Shown here: positions 31,205 through 59,042 of the stretch, in pieces | Numbering within the stretch: position 1 is the first letter of the stretch | How the letters are laid out: every line of letters starts with the position of its first letter | Assembly: GCA_051872415.1 (NCBI GenBank) | Contig: JBJEDW010000042.1 | Coordinates: 56,850 to 120,849 of the forward strand | Source: Bacilli bacterium | Lineage (GTDB): Bacteria; Bacillota_I; Bacilli_A; RF39; UBA660 | Length of the DNA stretch: 64,000 nt | Direction of reading: 5' to 3' | Notes under the pieces: model-generated | What the model saw: only the letters and a program-made list of their open reading frames with translations | Databases searched by the model: none | What the model was told of the DNA's origin: nothing | Translations under genes and position numbers: made by a program

Positions 31205-32225
31205 TCAACTAGAAGGTATCTTTAACTGTTGCCCTATTGACAACAAATCACTCGTTAAATTATTATAACTCTTAAGTTCACTTACACTTATTCCATAATT
31301 ATTCGCTATCTTCCACAAACTATCTCCTGATTTTACTATATAAATTGTACTAACACCACCACTTGGTATCTTTAATTGTTGCCCTATTGATAATAAATCA
31401 CTTGTTAAGTTGTTATAACTCTTAAGTTCACTTACACTTATTCCATAATTATTTGCTATTTTCCACAAACTATCTCCTGATTTTACTACATAAACCACCC
31501 CAGTCTCTTCTTCTTTCTCACTCGGAATAAACAAAAGTTGACCTATATTCAAATTATTACTAGTAAGATTATTAGCTTTTTTTAATTCATCCACACCAAT
31601 TCCATAACTAGTGGCAATCTTCCATAAACTATCGCCTTTAACTACCACATAATAATTAGCCCCTGGCAAAGGCGCATATTTAACTCCTGTATAAATTGCT
31701 ATTGCACGTACAACAGCTTCGGCATACTTTAAATAATCTTTTTTTATCCTACTAGCATCATTACTATTATCAACATAACCAAATTCAACCATAACAGTCT
31801 CGTAATCAGGAGTATCTCTTAAAAGAACATAATAATCATTTTGTGTATTCTCTGGATCTCTAAGTTGATAATATTTATTAACAACTCCTCCAGAAGTAGT
31901 AACTTGATCTGCTATCTCTTCAGCAAAATCATCACTATTCCTAAGAGCATAAATAATTTCTAAACCCTCTTCTCCACCTTTATTCAAATGATTAGAAACT
32001 ACTATTACATTTTTATCATTGCCAAAAGCAGAAGTTATAATATTAACCCTTTCTTCATCCGAAATAGTCCTATCAGTACTTCTAGTAATAATATTTTCTA
32101 TTCCCAAATCATCAAGTCTATCTTTAATATAATTAGAAATTAAAAGAGCATAATCTTTTTCTACAATAGCATTACCTTGATTACCAGGATCACTTCCTCC
32201 ATGGCTGGTATCGGATAAACCCAGA
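31205..32225 (-). pseudogene. N-acetylmuramoyl-L-alanine amidase with 3 C-terminal LysM repeats; 5' end (about 10 codons plus promoter) missing
   Basis: Frame is open from TAG at about 32226 with no start. Reads ..SDTSHGGSDPGNQG.. (Amidase_3 zinc-binding region), then 3 LysM repeats. The first ATG (31205..32107 in the ORF track) lies well inside the catalytic domain. Confidence 0.7.
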
Positions 32226-32258
32226 AACTATATTTTTTATTATTTTATAGGTTATACT

Positions 32259-33866
32259 TTATAAATCAAGATTCCACTCTATCTTAATCTCTCTGGTATT
32301 GGTTTCTTTATTTAATGCACCAACATATATTTTTTCTATAAATTCATCCACAATTATTCTAGTTAGTTTTTTAATATGTTTATACTTTTTAAGTATGCTT
32401 TCAATGTCTTTAGAGTTTTCTTTTCTCTCTTTTGTTTCATCAAGTTGTTTTTCTATTTCTTCTAGTCTTAATTGATATGATTCAACATCCTTTGTATATT
32501 CATCTCTTAACATTGAAAAATCACTATCGGATATTACACCTTTCAACTTATCTGTATAAAGATTTTTAAAATATAATTTGCTTTCATTTATCTTCTTTTC
32601 AAGATTTGCTTTTTCCTTATTTAAATTAGTAATTAAAATATCTTGTTTATTTTCTCTTTCTAATGTTGCGTTATATTCATCTTCAAGTAATTTCTTATTA
32701 CACTTTTTTAATAATTCATTTATAGCATCAAGTACATAATTTTCAATAATATCATATCTTATTGATCTATTATTATCACAAGTATGATATTTTTTACTAC
32801 CTTTGCATTGTAGATATGCTCTTTTTTGCATAACTCCATCAGCACATTTAATATTGCATTGATTTCTCATAAAGATTCTTCCACATTCAGCACAATATAC
32901 TTTACTGCTTAATATATGTACTTTACCATCTTCTTTTGCTGGTCTATGATGATTCTTTAATCTTTTTTGAACTAAATACCATGTTTCATTATCAATGATT
33001 GCCTCATGAGCATTTTCTGTGACGCTCCATTCTGATTTAGGAACTTTTTTTGACTTATGATTTTTATAACTAATATTTGTTCTTTTACCTTGTACTAATG
33101 TACCATTATAAGTTTCATTTCGTAGCATTCTTGCTATTGTATCTGATGTCCATATTCCAGTTGTATCATAATCAAAATTGCAACATACGAAATTACTTCC
33201 AATAGATTTTTTATAAAGAGATGGACATAATATTTTTCTTTCATTTAGACTAGCACATATTCTATGATAACCAAGTCCATTTTTATATTTTTCAAATATC
33301 TCTCTAACAATGGGGGCAACATTTTCATCAATAATAAGTTTATGCTTATCATTAGGGTCTTTCATATAGCCATAAGGTGCAAAACTCCCCATAAATAAAC
33401 CATCATCTCTTTTATTTTTCAACGATTTCTTAACATTGTTAGATAAATCCTCTAAATACCACTCATTAACAAGTCCATTAATTTGTCTTGATTTCTTGTT
33501 AGCCTCATTGTTAGTATCAGCATTATCAACTATACTTACAAATCTAACTCCCCATTCAACAAACTTGTTATGTAGATATTTCTCTATTACTTCCATATCT
33601 CTTGAAAATCTACTTTGTGTTTTACATAATACAATATTTATTCTTCCATTTTCACAATCATTAATTAATCTATTAAAATCTGGTCTTTCAACTCCTGCTC
33701 CAGAATAATCATCATCTGAATAAATATCTACAATTTCCCAACCTTGATCCAAAGCATATTTTAAAAGCATACTCTTTTGATTAGTGATTGACTCACTATC
33801 ATCATTTTTATTTTTCTTATATCTATCCTCATCCGATAGTCTGCAATATACACCTACCTTTTCCAT
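32259..33866 (-). CDS. Large serine recombinase (resolvase N-terminal domain, recombinase and zinc-ribbon domains)
   Basis: MEKVGVYCRLSDEDR catalytic Ser motif. 535 aa with a Cys-rich C-terminal domain. Its stop lies 33 bp from the truncated amidase. Confidence 0.9.
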   Translation of the reverse strand: MEKVGVYCRLSDEDRYKKNKNDDSESITNQKSMLLKYALDQGWEIVDIYSDDDYSGAGVERPDFNRLINDCENGRINIVLCKTQSRFSRDMEVIEKYLHNKFVEWGVRFVSIVDNADTNNEANKKSRQINGLVNEWYLEDLSNNVKKSLKNKRDDGLFMGSFAPYGYMKDPNDKHKLIIDENVAPIVREIFEKYKNGLGYHRICASLNERKILCPSLYKKSIGSNFVCCNFDYDTTGIWTSDTIARMLRNETYNGTLVQGKRTNISYKNHKSKKVPKSEWSVTENAHEAIIDNETWYLVQKRLKNHHRPAKEDGKVHILSSKVYCAECGRIFMRNQCNIKCADGVMQKRAYLQCKGSKKYHTCDNNRSIRYDIIENYVLDAINELLKKCNKKLLEDEYNATLERENKQDILITNLNKEKANLEKKINESKLYFKNLYTDKLKGVISDSDFSMLRDEYTKDVESYQLRLEEIEKQLDETKERKENSKDIESILKKYKHIKKLTRIIVDEFIEKIYVGALNKETNTREIKIEWNLDL

Positions 33867-34674
33867 TTACTACAACACCTCAATTCCGATTAGTTGTAGC
33901 AAACATAAATCTACAAGGACATTATATATCATATTATGAATTATTTAAAACTACACTATTTTCTTCCTCTGCTAATATAACTCGTAGTAATTTTTTTGCT
34001 ATGATATCTTTTAATTTATTTTCTTCAATTTCTTTATTATCTTTTATTATATTTATTACATTATAATTTACCTCCATTTTTCTATACCCCCTTTATGATG
34101 TTCTATAAAGAATATCCTCCTATTTTAGTCATATATCAATCCTCCTTAAACTCTTTTAATAAATATTCCATATATGCCTGTTCTTCAGGACTTGCTAGAT
34201 CATCTACACAAACTTCTGGATGTTCCATCCAATATGGAATAAATTTATTATTTTTATTATAATTATTTCTTGTATATTCTTTTCTTTTATATTGGTAATT
34301 TTTTACTATGTTTTTATTCTCATTTTTTCTAACACCTTAGAATTTTCTTTACTCACAATATCTTCATTAAGATAAATTCTTCGTTATCCATTTATAAATT
34401 TAACACTTATATAATTTTTTCTTTTTAAATTATTAATTAAATTAGATATTGTTTTTTCTTTAACACTTAATGTATTAGCAAAGTAACTATTACTAGCATA
34501 GCAATACTCCTTATTATTTAATAGTGAGTTAATCACACCATAAACTAAACTTATCTATTTGGGAACAAGTTTGGTCATTTAATATTATTCTTGGTACAAC
34601 AATAAAATACCTTATAAAAGCCATGTGTTCCTTTCAAATAAATATAGTTCCAGTATCCTAACACCATATTATTA

Positions 34675-34735
34675 GTTTGAACTATAACATATTTTAAAGA
34701 ACTAATTAAAAAAATATATATGTTATAGTTCAAAC
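34675..34735. repeat. Perfect 18-20 bp inverted repeat AGTTTGAACTATAACATAT-N25-ATATGTTATAGTTCAAACT
   Basis: Read directly. Lies in a gene-poor stretch with decayed HTH-like ORF fragments. Confidence 0.6.
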
Positions 34736-35116
34736 TTGTATTCATCCTATATTTCTATAAGATAGGTTCTGATATAAGCCTATATATCTTACCGAGTCTC
34801 TTATAACTAGCGTTCATTGTTACTTTTCTAGTTAAGTGTTATTGTGTACATTCCGTTTGAGTATTCTTTATATATTAGATATTTTAATTCTTTAAACAAT
34901 AATAAGTTCAAAAACAATTGTTGGAATACACCAGATAGTTTACAATCTGAAATATTTCCAAGTGTAAAGCAAAAGAAAAAGAACTGAAGAAAAATTAATC
35001 ATTTAATTTTTCAACAACTCCTTGCTTTGTTTATTATTATTTATATAAATTATTATTTACTACAACTAGTTCTATTTACATTGGATTTATTCGTACTTTG
35101 ATGACACTATTTAATT

Positions 35117-35164
35117 CAAAAAAAGCGGCAAAAAAGCGGCAAAAAAGCGGCAAAAAAGCGGCAA
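35117..35164. repeat. Four tandem copies of an 11-bp unit (GCGGCAAAAAA), iteron-like
   Basis: AAAGCGGCAAAAAAGCGGCAAAAAAGCGGCAAAAAAGCGGCAAATG, period 11 bp, immediately 3' of gene 35168..36838. Confidence 0.8.
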
Positions 35165-35167
35165 ATG

Positions 35168-36838
35168 CTATTTTATTTTCCAGCATGAGCCACCTGATTT
35201 TGCATCATTATATATTTTTCCTTCTTTTTTTAAAACATCTAATAAATATCTAACTCTACTAACTTTATTCTTATTATCTAATGATTTAGGAAGTTTATCA
35301 TTTAATAGTGCTATTATCTCTTTTCTACTTGCCGAACCATATTCATTCAAATATTTTAGAATCATTTCCATATAAAATTCATTTTCTAAGCCAGAGTTAT
35401 ACACATATTCTTCTTTAGCTCCTGTTATCTTGGCAATATCTGATGAAATATAAATTTTAGGATATCTTCCTTCTATTAAATTATCTTTTCTTAAATAATC
35501 GCTTTGTTCTTTTGTAATTTCAAAACCTTTTTGTACCCTATCTAATAACATCACTTCATCTATATCTAAATTCGTTTTTTCAAATAATATTTTACTATAT
35601 TTTTCATCTATTATCTTTCCGTATAAAGTTACTTTAACACGATTATCTTCACTCAAATCATAATCAGGCATTGGAAAAAACTTTTTCTTTTGAATATCAT
35701 ATACTCTTCTTATCCCACTACCAACAGTATCAATCATATTTAAATTAACCATCGCATTAGCTAAAAATTGATTTCTATAATAAGGTGATGAAAAACCATC
35801 TTTTAAAACATTTTCAATTGTTTCAGGAATAAAATTTCCTTCATTAGTTATTATTAACTTATCTTTGTATTCCATAACATTTATATTGCCACGTAATTTA
35901 TAATCTTGGTGAACGATACAGTTGTTAATTAACTCACGAAGTATATAATTATCGTATTGATCTACTTCATTTGGAAATAAAGTGTTATCATTAACCATGT
36001 ATCTATATCTCAAATTTCGTATCTTCGATTTTAATTTCTCAACATTGATAATAAATGGTATACCAAAATGTTCATAATCGATAACATTAAAATCATCATA
36101 AAGTTTCCATGTCATTTTAGGTGTATAGCCATTCATTAAATAATCATCATCATTCTTTCCTAATAATAGCATACAAGCCATAGTAATTTTGTTATTTAAT
36201 GTTAATTTAACTTTATTTAAAAAATCAATATCAGATAAATTATCTATTTCATCAGATATACTTTTTCCTTTATATTTAACCTTAAATTGTTCTCTAGCCA
36301 ATTTGATTGCTTCCTTATCTAAATTATCTATTGTTGCATTTTCTATTACTTGCCTTGACCAGTCATAATTTGCTGTTGCTTTAATTTGTTCTATCTTATT
36401 TGATGTTAAAGGAGATATTGATTCACCATTTCTACCATATGGAAATCCTTTCCAATTAATTGGTGTACCAGAAGCAGCTGGAACTTGAAACATAATTACT
36501 CTATTATGATCCTTTGTAAATTCATATATTTCAATAAACCCTATGTTATCTGTTGTATTATCAGAGATTTGTTTCTTCACTTTGTTAAAATTATTATCTC
36601 TATAAAAATTGGTATTAGTTAATTCATGCGTCTTATCATCAACACCAAAAACTATCCAAGAATATTGTTTATTTTTTAAATTTGCTTCATTACCTAAAGC
36701 TGAAAAATATTTACCCAAAGTATCAATATCGAAATTGTTTTCTGCTCTTTTAAATTCTACGCATTCATCCTCTGGATTTAATAATAGCTCATCTAAAATT
36801 TTATTTAACTCCTCGTTATTTTTATACAAAGCAATCAC
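35168..36838 (-). CDS. COG2865-type putative transcriptional regulator (AlbA_2/Schlafen-like DNA-binding domain + HATPase_c_4 + C-terminal wHTH)
   Basis: N-terminal ECVEFKRAENNFD...LGKYFSALGNEA...IVFGVDDK, typical of the AlbA_2 domain. 556 aa. Confidence 0.6.
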   Translation of the reverse strand: MIALYKNNEELNKILDELLLNPEDECVEFKRAENNFDIDTLGKYFSALGNEANLKNKQYSWIVFGVDDKTHELTNTNFYRDNNFNKVKKQISDNTTDNIGFIEIYEFTKDHNRVIMFQVPAASGTPINWKGFPYGRNGESISPLTSNKIEQIKATANYDWSRQVIENATIDNLDKEAIKLAREQFKVKYKGKSISDEIDNLSDIDFLNKVKLTLNNKITMACMLLLGKNDDDYLMNGYTPKMTWKLYDDFNVIDYEHFGIPFIINVEKLKSKIRNLRYRYMVNDNTLFPNEVDQYDNYILRELINNCIVHQDYKLRGNINVMEYKDKLIITNEGNFIPETIENVLKDGFSSPYYRNQFLANAMVNLNMIDTVGSGIRRVYDIQKKKFFPMPDYDLSEDNRVKVTLYGKIIDEKYSKILFEKTNLDIDEVMLLDRVQKGFEITKEQSDYLRKDNLIEGRYPKIYISSDIAKITGAKEEYVYNSGLENEFYMEMILKYLNEYGSASRKEIIALLNDKLPKSLDNKNKVSRVRYLLDVLKKEGKIYNDAKSGGSCWKIK

Positions 36839-36868
36839 CTCTTTTTTATTTTATCATACTTTTAATAA

Positions 36869-39232
36869 TTATAGTGTCATTTGACAATTATTTTCAATAA
36901 TTTCATATCCTACTTTTTCATATGCTTTTTTTCTTTTTAAAAACATATTTCTAATCATTGAAAAATTATCATCAACATAATCATAAACTATTATTTCTTT
37001 TTTATTCTTATTTTTTCTATGTAGTCTTCCTGTATATTGTACTATTCTATTTACACTAGATATTGGCATGGTTAAGAATAATACTTCTAATGTTGAATCA
37101 TCAAAACCCTCACCAATACATGAACTTGTAGCAATTATAATTTTATTTTCATTGTTTTCTTTAATATTAGAATTTAGTTCATCATATTTTTTAAGTATTT
37201 TCTTACCTAATCCACCGCGATACACAATTATATTATTGGTTATTTTTGATAATTTTCATATAAATATTCTAAATGATCAATTCTTTCCGTTAATACTAAT
37301 ACATTTTTACCATTTTTAAACTCTTTCTCAACATCTTTTATGACCACTTCATTTCTAATAACATCTTTCGAAATTAAATCATATATTTCATTAATTTTAT
37401 AATCTGTTACATTTTTGTTAACAAAATTTAAATGAACACTTTTACTATAAACTTTCATTGATAAATTTAATTTTTTATTATATTCTTTCATATCAACTCT
37501 ATATCTAATATCACCACATTGCATTTTAATAATTGGTGTATGCCCATTTTCTTTTTCTGGAGTTGCAGATACACCATATACATATTTAGCATTCATCATA
37601 TTTAATGCTGCTTCATAGGTATAAGCAGATAAATGATGGCATTCATCTATAATTATCATTCCATAGTTTTTAACAATATCATTAAATTTACCATCATTGT
37701 AAATAGTTTTAATACTAGCTACATCAATTTTATTTGTTAAAGTGTTTTTATTATCACCAATTTGTCCCACTTCTTCAATATTTAAAAATTCTTTTATTCT
37801 TTCTTTCCATTGCTTTAATAGTGATAAATTAAATGTAACTACAAGAGTATTAACATTTCTTGCCTCAACCAGTTTACAACATATAACTGTTTTACCAAAC
37901 CCAGTGGGTGCCTCAAGTATTCCATTTTTCATACTTCAACATTTCTTCTAGTGCTATACTTTGCTCTTCTCTTAATTTACCATTGAATTTTATATTTAGT
38001 TTTTGACCTTTATTTCTCTTATCAATAATATTCATCTTTATATTATTTTGATTACATAAATCAGATAAATACTCAAGTTTACCTCTAGGAATCATCAAAT
38101 ATTTTTCATCTTCTTTGCTGCAATCTATTACCATAGGAACATTATGAACAGACATTCTCATTCTTTGTTTTCTAAAAAATTCTGGATTGGCAAAAGTTGC
38201 AAGTCTTCTGAAACAATTTTTTACAACCGCACTTAAATTTGCTTTATCTATATAAATCATATTATCTAAGATAATATCAATACTTTTAGGAAAGTCAAAA
38301 TTATTTTTTTGCTTATTTTTAATTTCTTTTTTAATTTCTACATATTCATTACTAATATCTATTGTATTTTCAGATAAAATTCTTATTACACTAAATACAT
38401 CATCATAGTTCATTTTTTTTACACTACTTAAATAACTATATTGATCATCATAAGCAATAAAGTTTCTATCCAAGAAAGCAGTGTTATTATATTTCATAGG
38501 TTCATTTTGAAATGGAAGTGCGATTAAATTACCATAACCACCTTTAGGCATAGTATCTTGATTTGGAAACATTCTATCAAAAGAATCAATTTTTAAATTA
38601 TCACGTATTTCCATTGTTTTGGATAGCAATAGACTGCCCATCTTTCTAGCTGTTAATGCTTTTATATTATTTTCAAAGAAAATCCATACATGAATACCAT
38701 GGCCTGATCTACTACGCTCAATAGAAATAGGAACATTATACTTGTCACAAACGCTTGCAAAAGCAAGCACATCTTCTTTAATATCATTTTCATTTTTTTT
38801 ATCATCAAAATCAAAAGCCAAAAAGTAACAAGATTCATCTTCTAACATAGGATAAATTCCAATAGGATTACTATTAAATAAATGATTACTAATTACTTCT
38901 TTATCTATTGGTTTATCAATCCAATAATGACAATCTCTGCATTTTTTACCCATTGTTTTATTACAAACATTTTTATTCCATTCATTAGCACATTTAGGTA
39001 TATAATATTTCTTACTTGGATCTTTTTTATCAATTGATAGATAAGGATATATACTATCTCTACCTTTAAAATAACTCATAAAAACATTAACTTTTTCGTC
39101 ATTAGTAAAATTTATTTTAGGTTGATTATCATAAGTTTTAAGTAACTTCTTTAATTCATTAATTTCATTAATCAATTTCTTCGCTTCAAGTGTTTTTTTA
39201 TTTATGGTTTCAATTATCTCATTTCTTTGCAT
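36869..39232 (-). pseudogene. PrimPol (AEP primase-polymerase) fused to SF2 helicase, broken into three ORFs by two frameshifts
   Basis: 37913..39232 has the AEP motif RSGHGIHVWIFF and Cys clusters. 37240..37932 has helicase motifs I to III (APTGFGKT, DECHH, SAT). 36869..37225 has motifs V and VI (QYTGRLHR). The ORFs overlap or abut. Confidence 0.65.
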
Positions 39233-39349
39233 ATTATGCCCCTTAAAAATAATAAAGTTACTATATTATGCAATATTTTTAATTTTTTTTAAAGATTTAA
39301 AAGGATTTTGCATATTTTTCCGGTATATATACAATAGGAGGTGATGTTT

Positions 39350-39475
39350 ATGCAAGAATTAAACAAAGCAGAAATGCTTAATATCAATGGTGGTTCATCA
39401 ATAGTTGCTTGTACATATTATGGATTAGTTAAAATCACAAGATGTATCATCAAATTCATAAGTTCTAGATTCTAG
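39350..39475 (+). CDS. Double-glycine-leader class II bacteriocin-like peptide (41 aa), unannotated
   Basis: AGGAGGTG RBS 6 nt upstream. MQELNKAEMLNINGG|SSIVACTYYGLVKITRCIIKFISSRF, with an LNKxEMxxIxGG leader. Confidence 0.6.
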   Translation: MQELNKAEMLNINGGSSIVACTYYGLVKITRCIIKFISSRF

Positions 39476-39489
39476 TAAAAATTGCAGAA

Positions 39490-40146
39490 TTAATTTTTCT
39501 GCTTTTTCATTATTGTAAAAATATATCCAATAACACTTATTGGTAATAATATATACCAATAATTACTGTAATTAAGTAAATTATTGCTCACTGCATATAA
39601 ATTATGAATCAAATGTAAAAGAATTGGATAAATTAGGTTATTTGTTTTATAAAATGAATAATTCCATATTAAACTTATTCCTAACAAAATAATAAAACCA
39701 TCAATATTATAGATATGTATTAAGGCAAAAACAGTAGATGTTAATAGTATAGAAATAAAAATATTTAACTTTTTATTTAATTTTTTATATAATCCAAATC
39801 TAAATATTATTTCTTCAAATATTGGTGCAAAAATACAAGTAGTCACAATTTCAGCAATTATTTCAAAAATATTTGAAGGAATTTGAACATCAGTCGTTGA
39901 TATTGGAATAAATGTAACTAATTGTTCTAATAATATCCTAATAATAAATGATAAAAACATGTATTTCAATAAAATATTAACACTAATTTTTCTAATATTT
40001 AAACATTCTCTTATGTCAATTTTATCTTTACTTTTTAAATCATTTATTACTGCAAGTCCAAATAAGATTACTATCACAATATAAAATAATCTAGAAAAAT
40101 AAAAATCATTTATAACTTTATCTACCATTTTATCACCTATCTTCAT
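39490..40146 (-). CDS. CPBP family intramembrane metalloprotease (CAAX/Abi, bacteriocin immunity-like)
   Basis: EEIIFRFGLY motif 1 and FALIHIYN motif 2. Convergent with the peptide gene. Confidence 0.75.
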   Translation of the reverse strand: MKIGDKMVDKVINDFYFSRLFYIVIVILFGLAVINDLKSKDKIDIRECLNIRKISVNILLKYMFLSFIIRILLEQLVTFIPISTTDVQIPSNIFEIIAEIVTTCIFAPIFEEIIFRFGLYKKLNKKLNIFISILLTSTVFALIHIYNIDGFIILLGISLIWNYSFYKTNNLIYPILLHLIHNLYAVSNNLLNYSNYWYILLPISVIGYIFTIMKKQKN

Positions 40147-40273
40147 ACTAATTATACCATTTTGATGATTATTTAAAAAGATACTTCTTAAAAAGTAATT
40201 GGTTTGCTTATATTTGTATAGATTATAATTTGTTACAACTAATTCTTTTTATACTGGGTTTAATCTCACTTGG

Positions 40274-40306
40274 GTGTCCTGCATCAATAGCAACCTTATA
40301 ATTCAT
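40274..40306 (-). other. Amidase gene 5' stub (MNYKVAIDAGH) with RBS, fused to element-end sequence
   Basis: GGTGATGTTTATGAATTATAAGGTTGCTATTGATGCAGGACAC, then unrelated sequence. About 50 bp identical to the 41027-41075 copy. Confidence 0.6.
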
Positions 40307-40666
40307 AAACATCACCAATTAATTTTATGATAGTATTAATAAATAATTGTCAAAAACTATACAAAAAAGGAGCTGTAATAAAATAATTTAATTCAATTCT
40401 TTTATAGTACATATAATTATTTTCAGCTTTTAATAATTTATTTATGACTTTTCTATTATCCAAAAAGAGAAACATCATTTTATTTTGACATTTCTCTTTA
40501 AAAGTTAATTTATTTATTTATTTTCTATTTTCTTTAATTCTGCTAACTCTATTTGAGCTATTGATTTTTTCGGAGTTGGCAAATTTTCTGGCAAAGTACC
40601 ATCTAATCTTTTAATCGTTTCTCTCACTGCTTTTCCTACTTTATGATGAGTCATATTAGCATCGTG

Positions 40667-40897
40667 TTAGTTATTTATATTTTCTTTTTTTAGTTTTGCT
40701 TCAATTTGAACAATACAAAATAAATTATCTGCTAATTCTTCACTGCCCATATAATCTAATATTTCATCTTTATCAGTAAGCCCTATTCGGTTTGCTATTT
40801 GCTTAGCATTTTCTCCACCATACAAACCTTGATAACCATAATTAGTAAATTTACCACAATTGTCTAATCCTTCAAAAATAACTAACACGCCTATCAC
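40667..40897 (-). CDS. Hypothetical small protein (76 aa)
   Basis: ORF only. Lies in a region of decayed phage-like fragments; a DinD/Bro-like C-terminal fragment MTHHKVGKAVRETIKRLDGTLPENLPTPKKSIAQIE is at 40505-40645 on the minus strand. Confidence 0.3.
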   Translation of the reverse strand: MIGVLVIFEGLDNCGKFTNYGYQGLYGGENAKQIANRIGLTDKDEILDYMGSEELADNLFCIVQIEAKLKKENINN

Positions 40898-41023
40898 CTA
40901 ACATATACATTATAGCATTAAAATATGACTTTTTATCAAAAAAGACAATCTATTATTAAATAAATCATCCTTATATTTACTAGGTTTTATAGCTATTCTT
41001 CATATTTGGGATATTCCAACACC

Positions 41024-41059
41024 TTAATGACCTTCATCAATAGCAACCCTATAATTCAT
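41024..41059 (-). other. Second amidase 5' stub (MNYRVAIDEGH-stop), followed by a diverged copy of the element right-arm sequence
   Basis: ATGAATTATAGGGTTGCTATTGATGAAGGTCATTAA, then AGGTGTTGGAATATCCCAAATATGAAGAATAG, about 70% identical to the 40240-40273 arm. Confidence 0.5.
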
Positions 41060-41110
41060 AAACATCACCACTTAATTTTATGCAAAGTAAAAAGAAATAA
41101 TTATTAGAAA

Positions 41111-43027
41111 CTATTTCTTAATACTATCATATAAAACAGCATAACTATAAAGATTAATGCCATCATCATTTGGATGAATACAATCAACATAATATGAAAA
41201 AGCATTGTGACTATCCAAAAACTTTTCTATATAATTATTTGGATTAATATAAACATAATTATTCTCTAGAGCATAACTATAAAGAGCAGAAGAATACTCC
41301 TCAATAAGCATACTTTTTTCATTAAAACTAATTCTAGAAACACTATCATTTATCAAACTATACCAAGGGGCAATTAAAACAACTTTAGCTTTTTTATTTT
41401 TTATAAACTTAACAAGTTTATCAATATTTTCAATATATTCGCTACTTGTCATTGCACATCTTTTAGAATCCCTATATCTAATATCATTAATCCCTAAAGC
41501 TATAAAATAAACATCAGAATCACTTTCACTAATTTTTGAAGAAAAATTATCAATAACATCAACAGTTGTATAACCACTTTTAGAAATATTATTAACCCTA
41601 ACATTTGGGTATAACTCCATAAGAGGTAAATACCAACCTTTTTCATTATTCTTACTAATACCACTTGTAATACTATCACCAATAAAAGAAACAGAAGTAG
41701 CTTTATCCAAAGAACTTTTTAAACTACTTTTTTCCAAAACAGAAGATAAATCCAAATCAATATCCTCATCCTTATAAACAAAATATCTTTTTTGAAGCTG
41801 AGAGACCTCTATACTTTTACCAATCATTGAAGAAGTAACAATTTCATGAACCTTATTAGCTCTTTCTAATTCTTTAGAATCAAAACTATTATACACATCA
41901 TTATTTTCATAAATATCATAAATTGGTACTGCTTGATACTTTCCTTTAGAAATAAGCTTAGTATACATAGGAATAATGCTAGCTTTATCAACTTTTTTTG
42001 TTTTTTTATTAATATAAATTTCTGCAATAGCAGTACTATCACTATCATCTTTAACATATGAATTAGCAAAACTACCTAAAGAATTTACAATAAGCGTATC
42101 ACCCTCAAATAATACAGAAGAAGTAGCATGAGAATTATTTCCTAAAATAATATCTGCACCATATGAAATAAATATATCATTCCATTCTTCCTGCATTTTA
42201 TTAGTTTCATGTACAAATTGAGTCCCCATATGAGGCATAACAAGAATCAAATCAGCCAAACTTTTTTTAGCAAGCTCAAAATCTTTCTTAACCATTGCCT
42301 TAACCTTTTGAAAATTCTTACTATCACTAGAAACAATCACACTTGTCAAATTAGGTTCATCATAAATAAAATAATCACTATCATAATAATTAGAACTTAC
42401 AGAATAAGATAAAACAGCTATTTTTATTCCTTTAACATTAATAATTTTAACTTTACTTTTATCTATTGCACTTTTATAAGACCCAGTATGATCAAGCCCT
42501 ATTTTATCCAAATAATTTATAGTATTAAAAACACCATCTTTACCCTTATCCATTAAATGATTATTCGCAGTACTAACAAAGTCAATTCCAGAAGCCTTAA
42601 CAGAATCTGCAAAAGCAGTTGGAAAACCTAAATATAGTTTATTCCCATCATCATAATTACTTGTAGAATATCCCATTTCAGAATTCGAAACAGGACCTCC
42701 AAGCACCCCGATACAAAAATCAGACTCAGAAAAATATTTTTTTACTCTTTCAAACATATAATCAAAATTATATTTTTTAGAAGAAGAATCATAAGAATAA
42801 TTAACTTGATCTTTAAGTAAACTCAAATCTCCAACATAAGAGATAGAAACATAAGAATTATCTTCATTAGAACTTATCTTAGAATTTTTTACCAAAGAAC
42901 AAATACCATAACCTGCTAAAACAACTAAAAAAAGAAACATAATCAAAAAAAATAATAGTAACAATTTAAATTTATTTCTTTCAAAAAAAGATTTATACAT
43001 CAAAACAATCCTCCAGTAACAACACAA
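41111..43027 (-). CDS. CapA/PGA_cap-like metallophosphatase fused to a C-terminal SGNH/GDSL hydrolase domain, membrane-anchored
   Basis: N-terminal TM, a metallophosphoesterase-like capsule-synthesis region, and C-terminal FIGDSITSG plus a DxxH-like SGNH block. Confidence 0.55.
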   Translation of the reverse strand: MCCYWRIVLMYKSFFERNKFKLLLLFFLIMFLFLVVLAGYGICSLVKNSKISSNEDNSYVSISYVGDLSLLKDQVNYSYDSSSKKYNFDYMFERVKKYFSESDFCIGVLGGPVSNSEMGYSTSNYDDGNKLYLGFPTAFADSVKASGIDFVSTANNHLMDKGKDGVFNTINYLDKIGLDHTGSYKSAIDKSKVKIINVKGIKIAVLSYSVSSNYYDSDYFIYDEPNLTSVIVSSDSKNFQKVKAMVKKDFELAKKSLADLILVMPHMGTQFVHETNKMQEEWNDIFISYGADIILGNNSHATSSVLFEGDTLIVNSLGSFANSYVKDDSDSTAIAEIYINKKTKKVDKASIIPMYTKLISKGKYQAVPIYDIYENNDVYNSFDSKELERANKVHEIVTSSMIGKSIEVSQLQKRYFVYKDEDIDLDLSSVLEKSSLKSSLDKATSVSFIGDSITSGISKNNEKGWYLPLMELYPNVRVNNISKSGYTTVDVIDNFSSKISESDSDVYFIALGINDIRYRDSKRCAMTSSEYIENIDKLVKFIKNKKAKVVLIAPWYSLINDSVSRISFNEKSMLIEEYSSALYSYALENNYVYINPNNYIEKFLDSHNAFSYYVDCIHPNDDGINLYSYAVLYDSIKK

Positions 43028-50606: not shown

Positions 50607-50706
50607 AAAAATCTCTATAACAGAGAATTTTTTTTATTAAAAACAGATCAAAATATCAAAAAATATCTTAATCTATTATTAAATTTTACCAAAAAATAGA
50701 AATAAA

Positions 50707-51647
50707 TTATGGAATCAAAAGAGTTTGTCCTATTTGCAAAATATCACTAGATAAATTATTAAGCTTAATCAAATCATTAACATTAACATCATAAATTTGA
50801 GCAATTTTCCATAAACTATCTCCACTCTTAACAATATAAGTTTCATATTCACTAGTCTTTGGAATAACAAGCTGTTTACCTATACTAAGCATATTACTGC
50901 TTAAATTATTAGCCTCCTTAAGTTCATCAACTGTAATATTATATTTCTTAGCAATACTCCACAAACTATCACCTGATTTTACTACATAAATAATTTGATC
51001 ACTATTATTTTTATCAATACTAGGTATTAATAGTTGCTGACCTATTTGTAATAAAGTAGTACCCAAGTTATTATAATCAACAATATCATTAACACTCACA
51101 CCATATTGATTAGCAATATTCCACAAAGAATCACCAGATTTTACAGTATAAACAACATAATCACCAGGAGAAACATTAGAAGAAGTCGGAATAACCAAAG
51201 TTTGTCCAATATTAATAAGATTACCACTAAGTCCATTAGCATTCTTTAAACTTTCAACACTAATATCATATTTATTAGCTATTCCATATAAACTATCACC
51301 TTTTTTAACAACATAAGTATTTGCACTAACCCCAGGAAGCGAATAAGGAACACCTATATAATCCACAACAGCTTTAACAACAGCCTCTACATAATCATCT
51401 AAGTTATTCTTAAGCTGACTAATATCATCCTTAGGACTATCAATAAAACCATATTCTACCAAAATAGGTTCAGTCTTTCCTGTTTCTCTATGAATAAAGT
51501 AATAATCCTTAGTAGGATCACTAGGAAGTCTTCTCTGATAATAACTACGAATATTTTGTCCTTCACGAGCTATATTATTAAGAACAGACTTAGACAAAGT
51601 ATCACTATTTCTTAAAGCATAAACTACTTCAGCACCATCGCCACCTG
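50707..51647 (-). pseudogene. C-terminal about 313 codons of a LysM amidase (end of catalytic domain plus 4 LysM repeats), 5' part severed
   Basis: Frame opens at TGA right at the junction. Reads SPGGDGAEVVYALRNSD.., about 90% identical (protein) to 55040..56233. Junction after CACCT 51643-51647. Confidence 0.75.
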
Positions 51648-51699
51648 GTGATGGTCATTGTGTAACATTTTTCTAATTTCTTAATATTTTAAAACTTTA

Positions 51700-52130
51700 T
51701 ATTGTGCTTTTCACACCATTCTCTAAATACATAATTATAATAATCAGATGAAAAGTTGCGATATTCTTCATATAAATCATGTTTTTTCAAACAATCATAA
51801 AATTTATCCATATAATTGTGGTTTCTTAATATATAAAATAATTCTGTCTTGTTTGTTTATCATCCCAAATATTTTTTACAAATTCAGACATTGTTGATTT
51901 ATGATCAATAAATTCATAACTTGGCAGTGAATAAATATTTAAAGAAGCTTTAGATAGTAATTTTTCATAATCTTCATCAATTGGATTGTCAGGTAAATGC
52001 TTTTTTTAATAATCCCATGGATTTACTATTTCCATTATATCCGTTTTAAAAAAAACACATTCCCTGTCACGTATATTCATAAGAATATCTGCTATCGTAT
52101 ATTTTTTTAAATTATTCATTATTATCACCA
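51700..52130 (-). pseudogene. Decayed ORF with multiple in-frame stops
   Basis: Minus-strand translation gives recognisable segments (KKHLPDNPIDEDYEKLLSKASLNIYSLPSYEFIDHKSTMSEFVKNIWDDK) interrupted by stops. Confidence 0.4.
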
Positions 52131-52153
52131 TCTATCTAACATTTAAATTCTTA

Positions 52154-53041
52154 TTAATTATGACTCTTTTTATTTTTCGTTAAATTTTCTATAACATACT
52201 CATGAAGTCTTGGCATCGTAATTAATAAATAGACATAACGTTCCAAATACATAAAGATTTCGGAAGAATCGCCTCTACTATAATAACCAGGGTTTGCTTT
52301 ATCACTTTCTTTTATAGTACCATTAAAAAACTTAACAAAATTTGAATTGCATTTATTAACTCTATTTAAATATTCTTTAGCTTTCTTATCATTTCCAATC
52401 TTATAGTATAATGCAAATAAAGGAAATAACATTTCTAAATTTTCTTCTGGATATTTTTTATATAATTTCAGCATATCATTTTCTTCTTCTAATGTAGCAA
52501 GTATTGCCATTAATAAATATCTGGCTCCCATATTGTCATTTTCATTTAATCTTAAAACTTCTCTACATATACTTTCTGCTTGGCGTAATTTTCCTTCTTC
52601 TAATAAATATTCTGCTTTAACAACCAGCCCTCTAATATATGGTCTTGTTTCAAATATTCCATAAAAATATCCAATGTTTTCTTTATCAAAATATTTCTCT
52701 TTTGTTAATCTATTTTTTTCAGCTTCTAAGCCATCATCTAAAAGTTTCATTCTTTTTATTCCATTTTCCTCTAAATCACATTGAAATAAAATTGCATCAA
52801 AACATTCTGGCGATTTTTCATATGCTTTTTTTGCTAACTTTATAGCCTCTTTCTCGTTTCTTGCATTTTGTGCTTCTTCTAATATTTCATAAGCATCATC
52901 AAGTGGTGTATTTTCATATTCTATTTCTCCATTGTTATACATTTTTATAAATTCTTGTAATTTTTCATTTGCTTCATCAATGCTTTCAACATTATTATTT
53001 TTTAAATATTCTTGTAACATATTATTAAACTTATTATCCAT
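52154..53041 (-). CDS. Hypothetical helical-repeat (TPR-like) protein, 295 aa
   Basis: Repeated amphipathic helix pairs (AIKLAKKAYEKSPECFDAIL, EGKLRQAESICREVLRLNENDNMGARYLLMAI). No catalytic motif. Confidence 0.45.
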   Translation of the reverse strand: MDNKFNNMLQEYLKNNNVESIDEANEKLQEFIKMYNNGEIEYENTPLDDAYEILEEAQNARNEKEAIKLAKKAYEKSPECFDAILFQCDLEENGIKRMKLLDDGLEAEKNRLTKEKYFDKENIGYFYGIFETRPYIRGLVVKAEYLLEEGKLRQAESICREVLRLNENDNMGARYLLMAILATLEEENDMLKLYKKYPEENLEMLFPLFALYYKIGNDKKAKEYLNRVNKCNSNFVKFFNGTIKESDKANPGYYSRGDSSEIFMYLERYVYLLITMPRLHEYVIENLTKNKKSHN

Positions 53042-53066
53042 TTACTTCACCTTCTACTTTCTATTT

Positions 53067-53501
53067 TTAACAATCTTTTTCATATTCTATTTTATTATCA
53101 ATACACCATTGTTCAGCAATTTTCTTATATTCATTATCTCGAAATTTATACCAATCATCAGTTATATTATTGTAATCAGTTATTTCTCTAAACCTATGAA
53201 AAGTTCCGTTTCCTCTAGTTACGTTAAATAATTCATTTCTTATTAAATCATTACTTATATTACTAATAAAATCCTGCATAATATCATAATCATTTTTTGT
53301 ATAAAAATTAAACATACTAATGATATCATCATTGAATTCATCATCTTCTGTATATGTAGATTCCTCTTTGTTAAAATCCCATTGCCACAAAACTTCATTT
53401 GTTTTAGTATTAAAATAACAACTTGTTTCCATACTAACATCATATAATGCATCTCTTATTTCAGATAATTTTATCATATTTACTTCACCTACTACTTTCA
53501 T
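53067..53501 (-). CDS. Hypothetical acidic protein, 144 aa
   Basis: ORF 26 bp downstream of 52154..53041. Preceded by the TGCAGAATTCTCTGCA palindrome at 53526-53541. Confidence 0.45.
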   Translation of the reverse strand: MKVVGEVNMIKLSEIRDALYDVSMETSCYFNTKTNEVLWQWDFNKEESTYTEDDEFNDDIISMFNFYTKNDYDIMQDFISNISNDLIRNELFNVTRGNGTFHRFREITDYNNITDDWYKFRDNEYKKIAEQWCIDNKIEYEKDC

Positions 53502-53586
53502 TCTGCGGTAATTATTGTAGAACTATGCAGAATTCTCTGCACATTTTTATTATTAAATATTTCTTAATAACATAGGATTTTTCATT

Positions 53587-54801
53587 TTAAAATTCTTCAC
53601 TTAATAAAAAATCAATCAAATTCAAATGAATAATACCATCACGAGATAAATCTATCTTATCAAGAGAAATAACATATTTTGGATAATTATCTTCTATAGA
53701 TTTATACGCTCCAAATTCTCTTTCAATAGTACTTTCATTGCCTTTCATTTCATAAGTGACTTGAATATATTTAATATTTCCATCTTTCTTTGCTAAAAAG
53801 TCAACTTCACCATTTTTAGTTTTACCAATATATACTTCATAGTTTCTATTTATTAATTCGTTATAAACAATATTTTCTAAAACAACATAACTTTTAAATT
53901 CTGGATTATTATTTTTAATTTGGGCAATTCCTAAATCAGTTGCATAATACTTATTTAACGTTTTTAAAACTCCTTTACCTGCAATATCATATCTATATAC
54001 CTTTTTAAGTATTAATGCTTTACATAAAGCATCTATATAATTATATAATGTTTCATTAGATATTTTTTTATTTTCTTTATCTAGATATTTTATAATATTA
54101 TCAGAAGAAAACTCACGACCAGCAGTTTCAATCAAATATTGTAATATCATATCAAACAAAACTGTATCTTTTAAATTTAATCTTTTTACAACATCTCTTA
54201 AAATAATTGAATCATATACACTATGAAGATAATTTTTAATATCAATTTCATTTGTAAACTCACATCTATTAGGAAGTCCACCCCATTTAGCGTAATCCCA
54301 AAAAGTATCTAAGTCTTTTCCATCTTTATTTGTTAAAGAAACATACTCTTTATAAGATAAAGGATTAATATTAAATGAAACATATCTTCCTGATAAAACT
54401 GATGACAATTCATCTGATAACATTTTACTATTAGAACCAGTTAAAAATATGCTTATATTTTTTATTGAAGCTCTTAATGAATTAACAACTTTTTCAAAGT
54501 TATCTACATTTTGAATTTCGTCTAAAAACAAATAATATATTTTATTATCTTGAATTTTATCTTTTACGTATTTATTTAGCTTTTTATAATCTAGTAATTC
54601 TTCAAATTCAATAAATTCAAAATTAATAAATATTATATGTTCTTCATCAATTTTTCTTTTTTCTTTTAATTCTTCTATTATTTGATTTAGAATAACTGAT
54701 TTACCGCATCTTCTTATACCAACCAATATTTTAATTAAATCTGAATCATAAAATCCTCTTATTTTAGATAAATAATCTTCTCTTAAAAGCATATTAATCA
54801 C
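53587..54801 (-). CDS. AAA ATPase of the AAA_14 + DUF4143 family
   Basis: VGIRRCGKS Walker A, LFLDEIQ Walker B and a C-terminal DUF4143-like region. Confidence 0.7.
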   Translation of the reverse strand: MINMLLREDYLSKIRGFYDSDLIKILVGIRRCGKSVILNQIIEELKEKRKIDEEHIIFINFEFIEFEELLDYKKLNKYVKDKIQDNKIYYLFLDEIQNVDNFEKVVNSLRASIKNISIFLTGSNSKMLSDELSSVLSGRYVSFNINPLSYKEYVSLTNKDGKDLDTFWDYAKWGGLPNRCEFTNEIDIKNYLHSVYDSIILRDVVKRLNLKDTVLFDMILQYLIETAGREFSSDNIIKYLDKENKKISNETLYNYIDALCKALILKKVYRYDIAGKGVLKTLNKYYATDLGIAQIKNNNPEFKSYVVLENIVYNELINRNYEVYIGKTKNGEVDFLAKKDGNIKYIQVTYEMKGNESTIEREFGAYKSIEDNYPKYVISLDKIDLSRDGIIHLNLIDFLLSEEF

Positions 54802-54833
54802 CTCTGATTACATTATATATTATTTTTATATTT

Positions 54834-54871
54834 TTGTAAAGTTATTACGGTTAATCGTAATAACTTTACAA
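54834..54871. promoter_or_regulatory. Perfect 16-bp-arm palindrome TTGTAAAGTTATTACG-GTTAAT-CGTAATAACTTTACAA
   Basis: Read directly. Lies between the amidase stop and the start of the DUF4143 ATPase. No flanking T run, so operator-like rather than a terminator. Confidence 0.5.
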
Positions 54872-55039
54872 ATGTAAAAATTATTACACCAGTAGTATAT
54901 TGGTCAAAAAATAAAATTCTATAAATTATATTCAATTTATTTCAAACAATCCATTTTTTATCAAAACACAAAATAGATTAAAATATCTACAAGAATATCT
55001 CAATCTATTATAAATAATTACCAAAAAATGGAAAATAAA

Positions 55040-56233
55040 CTAAGGTATCAAAAGAGTTTGCCCTATTTGCAAAACATCACTAGATAAATTATTAAGCTTA
55101 ATTAAATCATTAACATTAACATCATAATTTTGAGCTATTTTCCACAAACTATCACCACTTTTAACAACATAAGTTTCATATTCACTAGTCTCAGGTATAA
55201 TAAGTTGTTGTCCTATACTAAGCATGTTACTACTTAAATTATTTGCATCTTTAAGTTCATTAACAGTTATATTATATTTCTTAGCAATACTCCATAAACT
55301 ATCACCTGATTTTACTACATAAATAATTTCATCACTATCAAGAGTAACACTAGGTATTAAAAGTTGTTGTCCAATTTGTAATAAAGTAGTTCCTAAATTA
55401 TTATAATTGGCAATATCATTAACACTAACACCATATTGATTTGCAATCTCCCATAAAGAGTCACCCTTTTTAACAGTATAAACCACATAATCACCTGGAA
55501 GAACATTGTTAGAAGCAGGAATGATTAAAGTTTGTCCAATATTAATAAGATTACCACTAAGTCCATTAGCACTCTTCAAGCTTTCAACACTAACACCATA
55601 TTTATTAGCTATTCCATATAAACTATCACCCTTTTTAACAACATAAGTATTAGCACTTACACCAGGAGCAACATAAGGAACACCTATATAATCCGCAACT
55701 GCTTTTACAACAGCTTCAACATAATCATCTAAATTATTCTTAAGTTGACTTATATCATCCTTAGGACTATCAATAAAACCATACTCCACTAAAATAGGTT
55801 GGGTCTTCCCAGTTTCCCTATGAATAAAGTAATAATCCTTAGTAGGATCACTAGGAAGTCTTCTTTGATAATAACTACGAATATTTTGTCCTGTTTTAGC
55901 AATATTATTAAGAACAGATTTAGCTAAAGTATCACTATTTCTTAGAGCATAGACTACTTCAGCACCATCGCCACCTCCCGCATTTATGTGATTAGAAATA
56001 ACTATCACATCATCTCTATTACCAAAAGCATTAAGTATCCTACTAACTCTTTCAGTCTTAGAAAGCGTCTCATCAGTATCACGAGTAAGTTTAACAGGAA
56101 TTCCAAGTTCATTAAACCTATCATACATATATAAAGCAGCCTCTAAAGTAAAATCTTTTTCCTGTAAATTTCCATTAATAGCACCAGGATCAACTCCTCC
56201 ATGTCCTGCATCCACTACTATTTTATAATTCAT
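55040..56233 (-). CDS. N-acetylmuramoyl-L-alanine amidase (Amidase_3) with 4 LysM repeats, intact
   Basis: MNYKIVVDAGHGGVDPGA...SNHINAGGG...E. The C-terminus has four LysM repeats of the type YVVKKGDSLYGIANKYGVSV. Confidence 0.85.
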   Translation of the reverse strand: MNYKIVVDAGHGGVDPGAINGNLQEKDFTLEAALYMYDRFNELGIPVKLTRDTDETLSKTERVSRILNAFGNRDDVIVISNHINAGGGDGAEVVYALRNSDTLAKSVLNNIAKTGQNIRSYYQRRLPSDPTKDYYFIHRETGKTQPILVEYGFIDSPKDDISQLKNNLDDYVEAVVKAVADYIGVPYVAPGVSANTYVVKKGDSLYGIANKYGVSVESLKSANGLSGNLINIGQTLIIPASNNVLPGDYVVYTVKKGDSLWEIANQYGVSVNDIANYNNLGTTLLQIGQQLLIPSVTLDSDEIIYVVKSGDSLWSIAKKYNITVNELKDANNLSSNMLSIGQQLIIPETSEYETYVVKSGDSLWKIAQNYDVNVNDLIKLNNLSSDVLQIGQTLLIP

Positions 56234-56421
56234 AAACTATCACCTAAAATATCTTATGAAAAAAATCAAAAATGGTGCAAATATATTAAATGTAAACAAA
56301 ACAAAATTACCAAAAATTACCAAAAAAAATAGGTTGACATAGTCAACTCTAAGCCTCTCCATTCCAAAAATATAAAGGAATTTAGAAAGTTTTCGCAAAT
56401 AATACTATTAGGAGGTGTTAT

Positions 56422-56550
56422 ATGTCAAATTTAAATAATTCAGAACTAATGAATATTTATGGCGGTAGAGCAGGATTTGCTTTACCTAATTTTGATGCTT
56501 ATATCAAAATGTTTAATTGGATTTATAAAACTGTTAAATCCTGGTTCTAA
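56422..56550 (+). CDS. Double-glycine-leader bacteriocin-like peptide (42 aa), unannotated
   Basis: TAGGAGGTG RBS. MSNLNNSELMNIYGG|RAGFALPNFDAYIKMFNWIYKTVKSWF. Confidence 0.6.
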   Translation: MSNLNNSELMNIYGGRAGFALPNFDAYIKMFNWIYKTVKSWF

Positions 56551-56644
56551 TTTTTTACAGTAGTATTTTTGCTACTGCTTTTAATTTTTAATAATATATA
56601 AATGATTAAACATATAACACCAAATACAAAGTAAACTATATTAT

Positions 56645-57060
56645 TCAATTAATATATCCTATCATTGCATAAATATTGTGTATAAAATGCATAATTATTG
56701 GATATATTAAATTATCCATTTTAAAGTAAGAATAATTCCATATTAAACTAATAACTAATAGTATTACAAAAACATCTATCCCATAAAAATGTATTAATGA
56801 AAATATTATTGAAGTTAATAGCATAATTATAATATTAGATTTAAATTTTTTATTTAAATATTCATATAATCCAAATCTAAATATTATTTCTTCAAAAATT
56901 GGAGCAAACAAACACATAGTAACTATTTCTAAAACTATAGACCAAAAATTCGTTGGAATATTTGAAATAGTTTCATCTATTGGTAAAAAATAAATTGTTT
57001 GTTCAATTATATTCTTAATATTTCTAAAGGAAAGTGTTTATCAATATTTTTTACTTCCAT
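56645..57060 (-). pseudogene. CPBP-family (Abi/CAAX) immunity-type protease, N-terminal part disrupted
   Basis: ORF 56645..56917 carries EEIIFRFGLY and SLIHFYG. Upstream TM-coding sequence is out of frame. Confidence 0.55.
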
Positions 57061-57189
57061 AAAACCACCTATAATTTTTTTATATAATACCTGATATAAT
57101 TTTTAATTTTGCCTGGTATTATGAAACAACATTTAAAAATTATTCTTTATTTAAATATTTTCAATTTATCCTATCAATCTATAGTTTGA

Positions 57190-58482: not shown

Positions 58483-58649
58483 TATTTTTATTATTTTACA
58501 AATTTTATTTTACATTTTGTACTGTTTATGTTTTACGTTTTGTACTTTTTTTATTTTGCATTTTGCCTTTTTTATTTTATGCGCATTATTCATATTTAAT
58601 ATTATATAAAAAACTAAACATAATAACTTTTTATTTTTTATCTCAATAC

Positions 58650-58946
58650 TCAATCAATTCCTTTGTAGTGGTAACTAAACTCTGCACCTCCCGCATTTAT
58701 GTGATTAGAAATAACTATAACATCATCTCTATTACCAAAAGCATTAAGTATCCTACTGACTCTCTCACTCTTAGAAAGGGTCTCATCAGTATCACGGGTA
58801 AGTTTTACAGGAACACCAAGTTCATTAAACCTATCATACATATATAAAGCAGCTTCTAAAGTAAAATCTTTCTCCTGCAAATTACCATTAACAGCACCAG
58901 GATCTACTCCTCCATGATCAGCATCCACTACTATTTTATAATTCAT
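58650..58946 (-). pseudogene. N-terminal about 87 codons of the amidase (DADHGG variant) with promoter, severed after HINAGG
   Basis: About 97% nucleotide identity to 55976-56340, including about 100 bp upstream. Diverges exactly after CACCT (58684-58688). Confidence 0.75.
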
Positions 58947-59042
58947 AAACTATCACCTAAAATATCTTATGAAAAAAAGCAAAAATGGTGCAAATATATT
59001 AAATGTAACCAAAACAAAATTACCAAAAATTACCAAAAGAAA

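Follow-up and report, generated by a model that had tools for sequence, protein, structure and literature searches.

The amidase locus of the window, i.e., the whole 64,000-nucleotide stretch of DNA that was analysed (G+C content ~25%), is best read, with a probability of about 0.7, as a composite of at least two, and probably three, members of one family of large serine recombinase (LSR) elements that target the codons of the DAGH^GG motif of Amidase_3 genes (^ marks the point of exchange). The features on which this reading is based are listed in Table 1.

Table 1. Features of the amidase locus and of the second insertion region, in positions of the window.
Feature	Position	Strand	Basis
Host flanking gene, PGA_cap and GDSL domains	41111..43027	-	Pfam; syntenic with empty-site contigs L027-L032 and L125-L135
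Native intergenic region and amidase 5' stub 2 (B-left copy 2)	41028..41110	-	Near-identical to sister-species intergenic region
E2 right-end remnant: P-R arm TTAAGGTGTTGGAATATCCCAAATAT, conserved right-end block, promoter-like stretch	40867..41027	-	Aligned with L063/L064/L066/L083; matrix rank 3
dinD-like pseudogene, 5'-truncated	40514..40866	-	Homology; in-frame stop 40667-40669
Terminator-like hairpin after dinD, AAAGAGAAA...TTTCTCTTT then T run	40464..40499	-	Sequence reading
Spacer between dinD terminator and second intergenic copy	40366..40461	-	No significant match in fetched loci
Diverged intergenic copy IGR' and amidase 5' stub 1 (B-left copy 1)	40275..40365	-	Alignment to native region
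Element E1: right arm, 5.2-kb cargo, inner right end, core, LSR, left arm	32204..40274	-	attL/attR read; Pfam
Internal family right end within E1, GTCA^TCAAAGTACGAATAAATCCAATGTAAATAGAACTAGTTGTAGTAAAT..., no amidase stub ahead	34990..35101	-	Matrix rank 2; aligned with L045/L046 right ends
LSR of E1, 535 aa, intact	32259..33866	-	Resolvase, Recombinase, Zn_ribbon_recom, DUF4368 (Pfam)
Amidase 3' part, B-right, HGGSDPG..., Amidase_3 and 3 LysM, native	31205..32203	-	Pfam; sister-species comparison
Site-2 insertion region in Amidase_3	50640-59072	-	Break at NHINAGG^G
Amidase 5' fragment, ends ...NHINAGG^AEFSYHY, arm similar to that of L017	58650-58946	-	
Intact full-length amidase paralogue C	55040-56233	-	
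Amidase 3' fragment, starts ...GGTGG^CGATGG (~51646)	50707-51646	-	

The empty site was found in 17 contigs of a sister species (L027-L032, L125-L135), where it consisted of the PGA_cap gene, 51 bp, and one intact amidase. Downstream of this amidase were a 151-aa gene, sHSP and FeoB, the same genes as in the window, and the sister-species homologues were 84–86% identical to the amidase reconstituted from the window by rejoining stub 1 to 32201-31205, which yielded a 342-aa ORF with an Amidase_3 domain and three LysM domains. The single amidase in all 17 contigs indicates one ancestral gene, and that all DNA from 41028 to 32203 is insertion. The 3' part of the amidase was 82–90% identical in nucleotides to the sister species, with identity unbroken at the junction, and its smooth identity profile against this species revealed no imported patch. 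On the opposite side, the stop codon of PGA_cap marked the start of the native intergenic region. For protein P0134 and for the PGA_cap protein of the flank, look-ups returned no record.

The promoter, ribosome-binding site and first 11 codons of the amidase were present twice on the minus strand, with ATGs at 41059 and 40306, and both stubs were cut after the His codon of the DAGH^GG motif, where an element arm followed. Stub 2, as originally predicted, lay at 41024-41059 and read MNYRVAIDEGH-stop (His codon CAT at 41029-41027, TAA at 41026-41024); a 32-nt stub pattern had two matches in the whole window, with a chance expectation of 0. A repeat search paired 40242-40329 with 40995-41082 at 77% identity (family D8), as direct repeats 753 bp apart. 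The upstream sequence common to the stubs, first put at about 50 bp, was longer: global alignment gave a common 5' segment of ~92 nt at 82% identity, reaching over the whole PGA_cap–amidase intergenic region. Divergence was heterogeneous along the copies, with 93% identity over the 55 nt proximal to the ATG, ~73% in the distal intergenic part (8 changes in the distal 33 nt), and 57% in the arms.

The intergenic region at stub 2 was near-identical not only to that of the sister species, but also to that of L002, and the coding part of the stub carried four substitutions relative to the sister attB. The copy at stub 1 (IGR', TTGACAATTATTTATTAATACTATCAT) matched the native region at ~38 of 52 positions by our own count on the alignment, the homology beginning at the ATAG of the PGA_cap stop codon, and had a TTGACA -35 box that was better than that of the native region. 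The coding part of stub 1, with the crossover CA at 40276-40275, was one base off the sister attB. The contigs of the two closest species-level relatives, L002 (end 9332) and L003 (end 7531), stopped no more than ~30 nt from the start of the duplicated 5' segment, which suggests that the site is polymorphic or repeated in those metagenomes too.

Element E1 was 8,073 bp long, one CA counted, and its junctions read GGACA^CCCAAGTGAG... (40276/40274) and ...ATACCAGCCA^TGGAGG (32203/32201). Rejoining its attR (GGACA^CCCAAG) and attL (CAGCCA^TGGAGG) gave the attB of the sister species, and the deduced attP, CTGGGTTTA-N12-CA-N12-TAAACCCAG, was symmetric, with a 9-bp inverted repeat 12 nt to each side of the CA. 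As read from these junctions, E1 was shown to be a bona fide LSR insertion, with exchange at the CA dinucleotide and no target duplication. Its LSR had Pfam values of 3e-24 (PF00239), 2e-25 (PF07508) and 2e-11 (PF13408), in addition to DUF4368, and more than 5,000 homologues. With an intact LSR and proper attL and attR, E1 could still be excised, which would restore the amidase.

Only the last 2.7 kb of E1, containing an HTH_36 fragment, a 47-aa ORF, the LSR and the left arm, was common to its relatives (86–92% identity). The cargo encoded a Schlafen/AlbA_2-HATPase_c_4 protein, a broken TOTE primase-helicase, of which the AEP-primase and helicase were split into three ORFs (36869-39232), and a CPBP protease beside a GG-leader peptide of 44 aa. 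From its gene content, this cargo (35168-40146 on the minus strand and 39341-39475 on the plus strand) looks like a small defence or competition island. Typical relatives of E1 carried a Mob_Pre relaxase, HTH genes and a terminal LSR, and with the relaxase and HTH genes they look like integrative mobilizable elements; E1 itself was without a relaxase.

A further family right end was located inside E1, at 35101, where ~110 nt could be aligned with the right ends of L045 and L046. It consisted of the arm and the conserved ATAGAACTAGTTGTAG block, with GAATTAAATAGTGTCA ahead of it. Its position implies that E1 is itself composite, with an outer right end and 5.2 kb of cargo followed by an inner right end, the core and the LSR. 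In total, the family ends at the locus were three right and one left, and the inner boundary at 35101 could be a left-arm^right-arm hybrid att site with a deletion. Between the Schlafen-like gene and the inner right end, a tandem repeat (GCCGCTTTTTT) was present in four copies at 35113-35160 on the minus strand.

The family was sampled at 48 loci, with LSRs 49–94% identical to that of E1. In 43 of these, the left arm was followed by CA^TGGnGG or CA^CGGnGG, coding HGG(S/D/K/T)DPG, in many different Amidase_3 genes, and attR stubs of the form ...GAYGCNGGNCA^arm were found upstream in 16 loci. The same element lay beside at least three different amidases (L017, L020, and L022). Recurrent use of the amidase 5' region as attB, as proposed, was thus borne out by recombinases abutting the HGG-DPG codons, and the target of the family is the DNA coding the catalytic DAGH^GG motif of Amidase_3. 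In the library of literature that was searched, no description of LSR elements targeting Amidase_3 was found.

Several other sites of the family were recorded. One amidase 5' end (MDFRKKIGVVVDAGH...; ATGGATTTTAGAAAGAAAATAGGTGTAGTCGTAGATGCTGGTCA) hosted five different family elements in different samples (L017, L045, L053, L063, and L066). In L078 (11587-11640), the left arm of an LSR relative (56% identity) was followed by G+C-rich, non-amidase sequence, and this insertion may represent an off-target or secondary site. Within the window, amidase paralogue C contained an attB-like site at 56184-56214 on the minus strand (GATGCAGGACATGGAGGAGTTGATCC) that was intact and unoccupied, despite the presence of the E1 LSR in the same genome.

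The second junction (GGTCATTAAGGTGTTGGAATATCCC) was compared with the ends of the family using an arm matrix built on the right arms of 11 relatives, the window excluded. Among the 127,948 window positions scored, the E1 arm ranked first, the inner end at 35101 second, and the sequence after stub 2 (the E2 arm) third, the match being exactly in register after the CA of the stub. An identity of ~70% between the two arms, as had been claimed, was not found; pairwise alignment gave 57–58% with gaps, yet by its rank the arm was still specific. The E2 arm could be aligned over ~115 nt with the right ends of L063, L064, L066, and L083, a sublineage whose LSRs are ~59% identical to that of E1, across the conserved right-end block and on through the promoter from which the first gene of an element is normally expressed; in E2, this promoter-like stretch comprised TTGATA (40939-40934) and TGcTATAAT (40914-40909). 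The distance from the CA to the inverted-repeat motif (TAAATCCAA-type) was 13 nt in the E2 arm and its sublineage, and 12 nt in E1-type arms. Judged by register, spacing and alignment, the junction at 41027 was shown to be a bona fide right end, with the appearance of an attR-type scar, of an element from a different sublineage, E2.

No recombinase ORF was found in 40330-41026, and a search of 40330-40530 for a decayed recombinase 3' end or a LysM remnant gave AT-rich noise alone. A left partner of the second junction (arm^HGG) was likewise looked for; none was present in the window, in which the only B-right-like sites were those of E1 and paralogue C. Being without a recombinase and without a left junction in the window, E2 is a remnant and not an element.

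Of E2, about 160 bp of right-end sequence were left, and at 40866 its promoter region ran directly into a dinD-like gene reduced to the last two-thirds, everything between them having been lost. The stretch homologous to dinD (40866 to 40514) lacked the N-terminal third and was interrupted by one in-frame stop. Of the decayed fragments placed between the stubs by the original prediction, the DinD-like remnant was real, but its DinD C-terminus and 76-aa ORF proved to be parts of one pseudogene: the 76-aa and 46-aa ORFs were in the same frame, with one stop between them (40667-40669). The predicted product was 88% identical in amino acids to homologues of 162–170 aa, and 52% identical to the 281-aa dinD of L064, which belongs to the E2 sublineage and has its full dinD as terminal gene, after the LSR and before the left arm. 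Given this terminal position in L064, a single internal deletion could yield the E2 remnant. The dinD of the window was 84% identical in nucleotides to free-standing dinD-like genes in unrelated contexts, and homology to one such locus (L033) stopped at 40462; as it is closer to these genes than to that of L064, dinD remains a candidate part of E2. In L064 (11441-12365), a left-arm-like sequence (AAATTTGGATTTTTCTG...) occurred straight after the LSR stop, and the real left arm only after the 281-aa dinD, so that dinD looks like an accreted left-end remnant there.

Neither an intact E2 nor a donor of IGR' was detected by approximate matching in all 135 fetched loci or in scans of viral contigs, and the contexts of dinD homologues identified no source of E2 or IGR'. 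An exact-protein look-up of the 76-aa ORF returned the same arrangement alone. The segment of stub 2 and E2 is now an inert scar, and its decay suggested that E2 is older than E1.

In LSR integration, strands are exchanged at a 2-bp core and nothing is duplicated; serial LSR insertion alone therefore cannot give a second 5' stub. The original prediction of two successive insertions into the amidase 5' region, one of them later largely deleted, was thus sound with respect to the attR-type scar of a related, distinct element, but did not account for the duplicated stub. The boundary between the E2 remnant and E1 was IGR' and stub 1, a B-left of host type, and a left-arm^right-arm hybrid was not seen there. 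As E1 is joined to this host-type half-site and not to an arm of E2, it did not enter an att site flanking E2. The absence of duplication in LSR integration, together with a diverged IGR' on near-native coding sequence, points to non-LSR recombination as the process that placed a second B-left downstream of the E2 remnant. This extra step, homologous or illegitimate, would have rebuilt or duplicated the target half-site and so given a complete attB or attR for E1, and the IGR' copy at stub 1 is probably foreign. A duplicated stub was found at none of the 16 other occupied loci, which makes the proposed step rare, a single case.

Two routes may be envisaged. In route A, E2 would have arrived as a defective piece that brought along the B-left flank of an earlier host, comparable to a product of aberrant excision of the lambda dgal type, and one homologous crossover in the ~85 bp of B-left homology would have inserted it. 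The product would be the native intergenic region with the end of the foreign stub, then E2, followed by the foreign IGR' with the native stub and what lies beyond it, and the order in which E1 and E2 arrived would be left unfixed. In route B, E2 would have integrated by means of its own LSR and decayed. Homologous DNA of a relative would then have repaired the split amidase or taken its place, with its anchor in the amidase and an illegitimate join on the upstream side, and E1 would have integrated last. Both routes fit equally. Along the copies, eight sites at which copy 2 agreed with the sister species were followed by three sites at which copy 1 did; this pattern agrees with route A, and is equally explained by decay of the dead stub.

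LSR integration and deletions would suffice if the ancestor had carried two tandem copies of the intergenic region with its amidase, with E2 inserted in the upstream and E1 in the downstream copy, and if most of E2 and the amidase 3' part of the upstream copy had since been lost in two deletions. The genome does have several LysM-amidase paralogues with similar 5' leaders, and the divergence of IGR' from its native homologue is what an old paralogue would show. However, such a history is improbable; it was down-weighted because the 17 empty-site contigs hold one gene. In addition, no second amidase 3' part or LysM coding sequence was detectable in 40330-40530, one of the two deletions required would have to end exactly at the start of IGR', and the proximal 55 nt at 93% identity beside 8 changes in the distal 33 nt would be odd for a duplication of one age.

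The better -35 box of IGR' could also be taken to mean that E2-type left ends normally carry a promoter and 11 amidase codons as a cassette that restores the target, keeping the amidase expressed and recreating attB. The intact amidase copy between the halves of the site-2 insertion elsewhere in the window would suggest such element-linked copies. This is distinctly improbable, as in all 43 readable attL sites, including those of the E2-type loci L062-L065, the left arm directly adjoined the His codon, with no start codon or promoter. Moreover, a left arm identical to B-left would turn attP into an attR-like site, and LSRs are not known to recombine such sites with attB without a directionality factor. 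Finally, that the attR1 junction was simply duplicated on the spot and then diverged, or that two strains were merged into a chimera in assembly, is very improbable and largely refuted: although the copies are direct repeats and the source is a metagenome-assembled genome, divergence was heterogeneous (82–93% in the 5' part and 57% in the arms), so that a simple local tandem duplication was not borne out, the second arm matched another sublineage in spacing and in ~115 nt of flank, the longest exact run between the copies (~21 nt, by eye on the alignment) is below assembler k-mers and thus too short for a mis-join, and Logan contig L001 (SRR30616767) had the same double-stub arrangement base for base.

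A second hot spot, at NHINAGG^G, was observed in the Amidase_3 genes. In the window, the 5' fragment was followed by ~2.4 kb, paralogue C, ~3.3 kb and the 3' fragment, and the ~7 kb between the fragments contained two AAA-type ATPase-like ORFs (read from the ORFs) and a CPBP fragment as well as paralogue C; no recombinase was found between the fragments. The halves of paralogue C were 92% and 88% identical to the two fragments, and met exactly at the break point. Paralogue C is another intact amidase copy beside scars, and the window may have three structures of rebuilt-amidase type: stub 2 with stub 1, and gene C paired once with the 5' and once with the 3' fragment.

The amidase 3' part was cut again at NHINAGG^G in L017 (11860-11930), L018 (11860-11920), and L064 (12580-12640). 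Just past the break, there was a recombinase gene of 411 aa in L018 and of 553 aa, on the opposite strand, in L064; the genes adjoining the break in L017 were of defence type (AAA_21, Abi_2, HipA_C). The CPBP fragment beside paralogue C (90 aa, 56645-56917) was 72–78% identical in nucleotides to the E1 CPBP gene at 39588-39882 (repeat families D5/D6).

Tandems and decayed remnants of integrative elements have been described in Firmicutes (Guedon et al., 2017, PMC5704250; PMC12084326). As in those ICE/IME tandems, including the mobilome of Faecalibacterium (PMC12084326), related elements are found side by side here, one of them decayed and without a recombinase. In contrast to them, the internal junction is a second, diverged host half-site, made up of the intergenic region and 11 codons, and E1 has defence-type cargo in place of a relaxase. 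Tandem accretion leaves a recombinant att site of the incoming attP and a resident attL or attR between the elements, and the E2/E1 boundary was not of this kind.

SCC and SCCmec arrays at rlmH (orfX) are moved by the Ccr large serine recombinases. There too, LSR-borne elements pile up serially at a site embedded in a gene and leave remnants without recombinases. However, SCC elements insert at the 3' end of rlmH without inactivating it, with a short repeated att core at each boundary, whereas the amidase is split near its 5' end at the codons of a catalytic motif, and the repeated unit is ~90 nt of promoter and 5' coding sequence. In the case of lambda dgal, aberrant excision is followed by homology-driven insertion. 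The likeness to route A would be that of a defective element with one host flank, its opposite end missing, lying between duplicated copies of the flank; this is a mechanistic analogy alone, as no phage is involved here and the event is inferred at one locus.

Precise interruption of coding sequence by an LSR element whose excision could rebuild the gene likens E1 to the gene-intervening elements of spore formers, i.e., skin in sigK, SPbeta in spsM, and gin in gerE (PMC4191935, PMC5595907, PMC5025042). The host lineage has sporulation genes, with spoIIAA/sigF-like ORFs at 160-1142 (read from translations) in the window and Spore_GerQ and Spore_II_R in related contigs. The target of E1, however, is a motif common to many amidase genes in many hosts, and not one orthologous gene. 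Moreover, those three elements reside in sporulation-specific genes and their excision is under developmental control, whereas the gene split here is known just as an Amidase_3-LysM hydrolase.

A remnant beside an intact element is a known kind of structure, and its target is apparently undescribed. A recombinase family that reads protein-motif-coding DNA as attB would have a target that is portable across hosts and paralogues, and its many natural attB/attP pairs, with recombinases 49–94% identical, may be useful for the study and engineering of LSR specificity. An intact target rebuilt beside a scar is also relevant to the recovery, by their hosts, of genes that mobile elements have split. 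A wider reading is possible, though doubtful: a large clade of LSRs would read Amidase_3 motif DNA and not one orthologous locus, and capture of diverged segments would repeatedly rebuild an intact amidase, in a tug-of-war between element and host. If this were true, the same genes would be targets of a second set of recombinases at NHINAGG^G, the LysM-amidases of many Firmicutes would all be landing pads, and the contest would be over an important cell-wall hydrolase, with hosts or elements doing the rebuilding.
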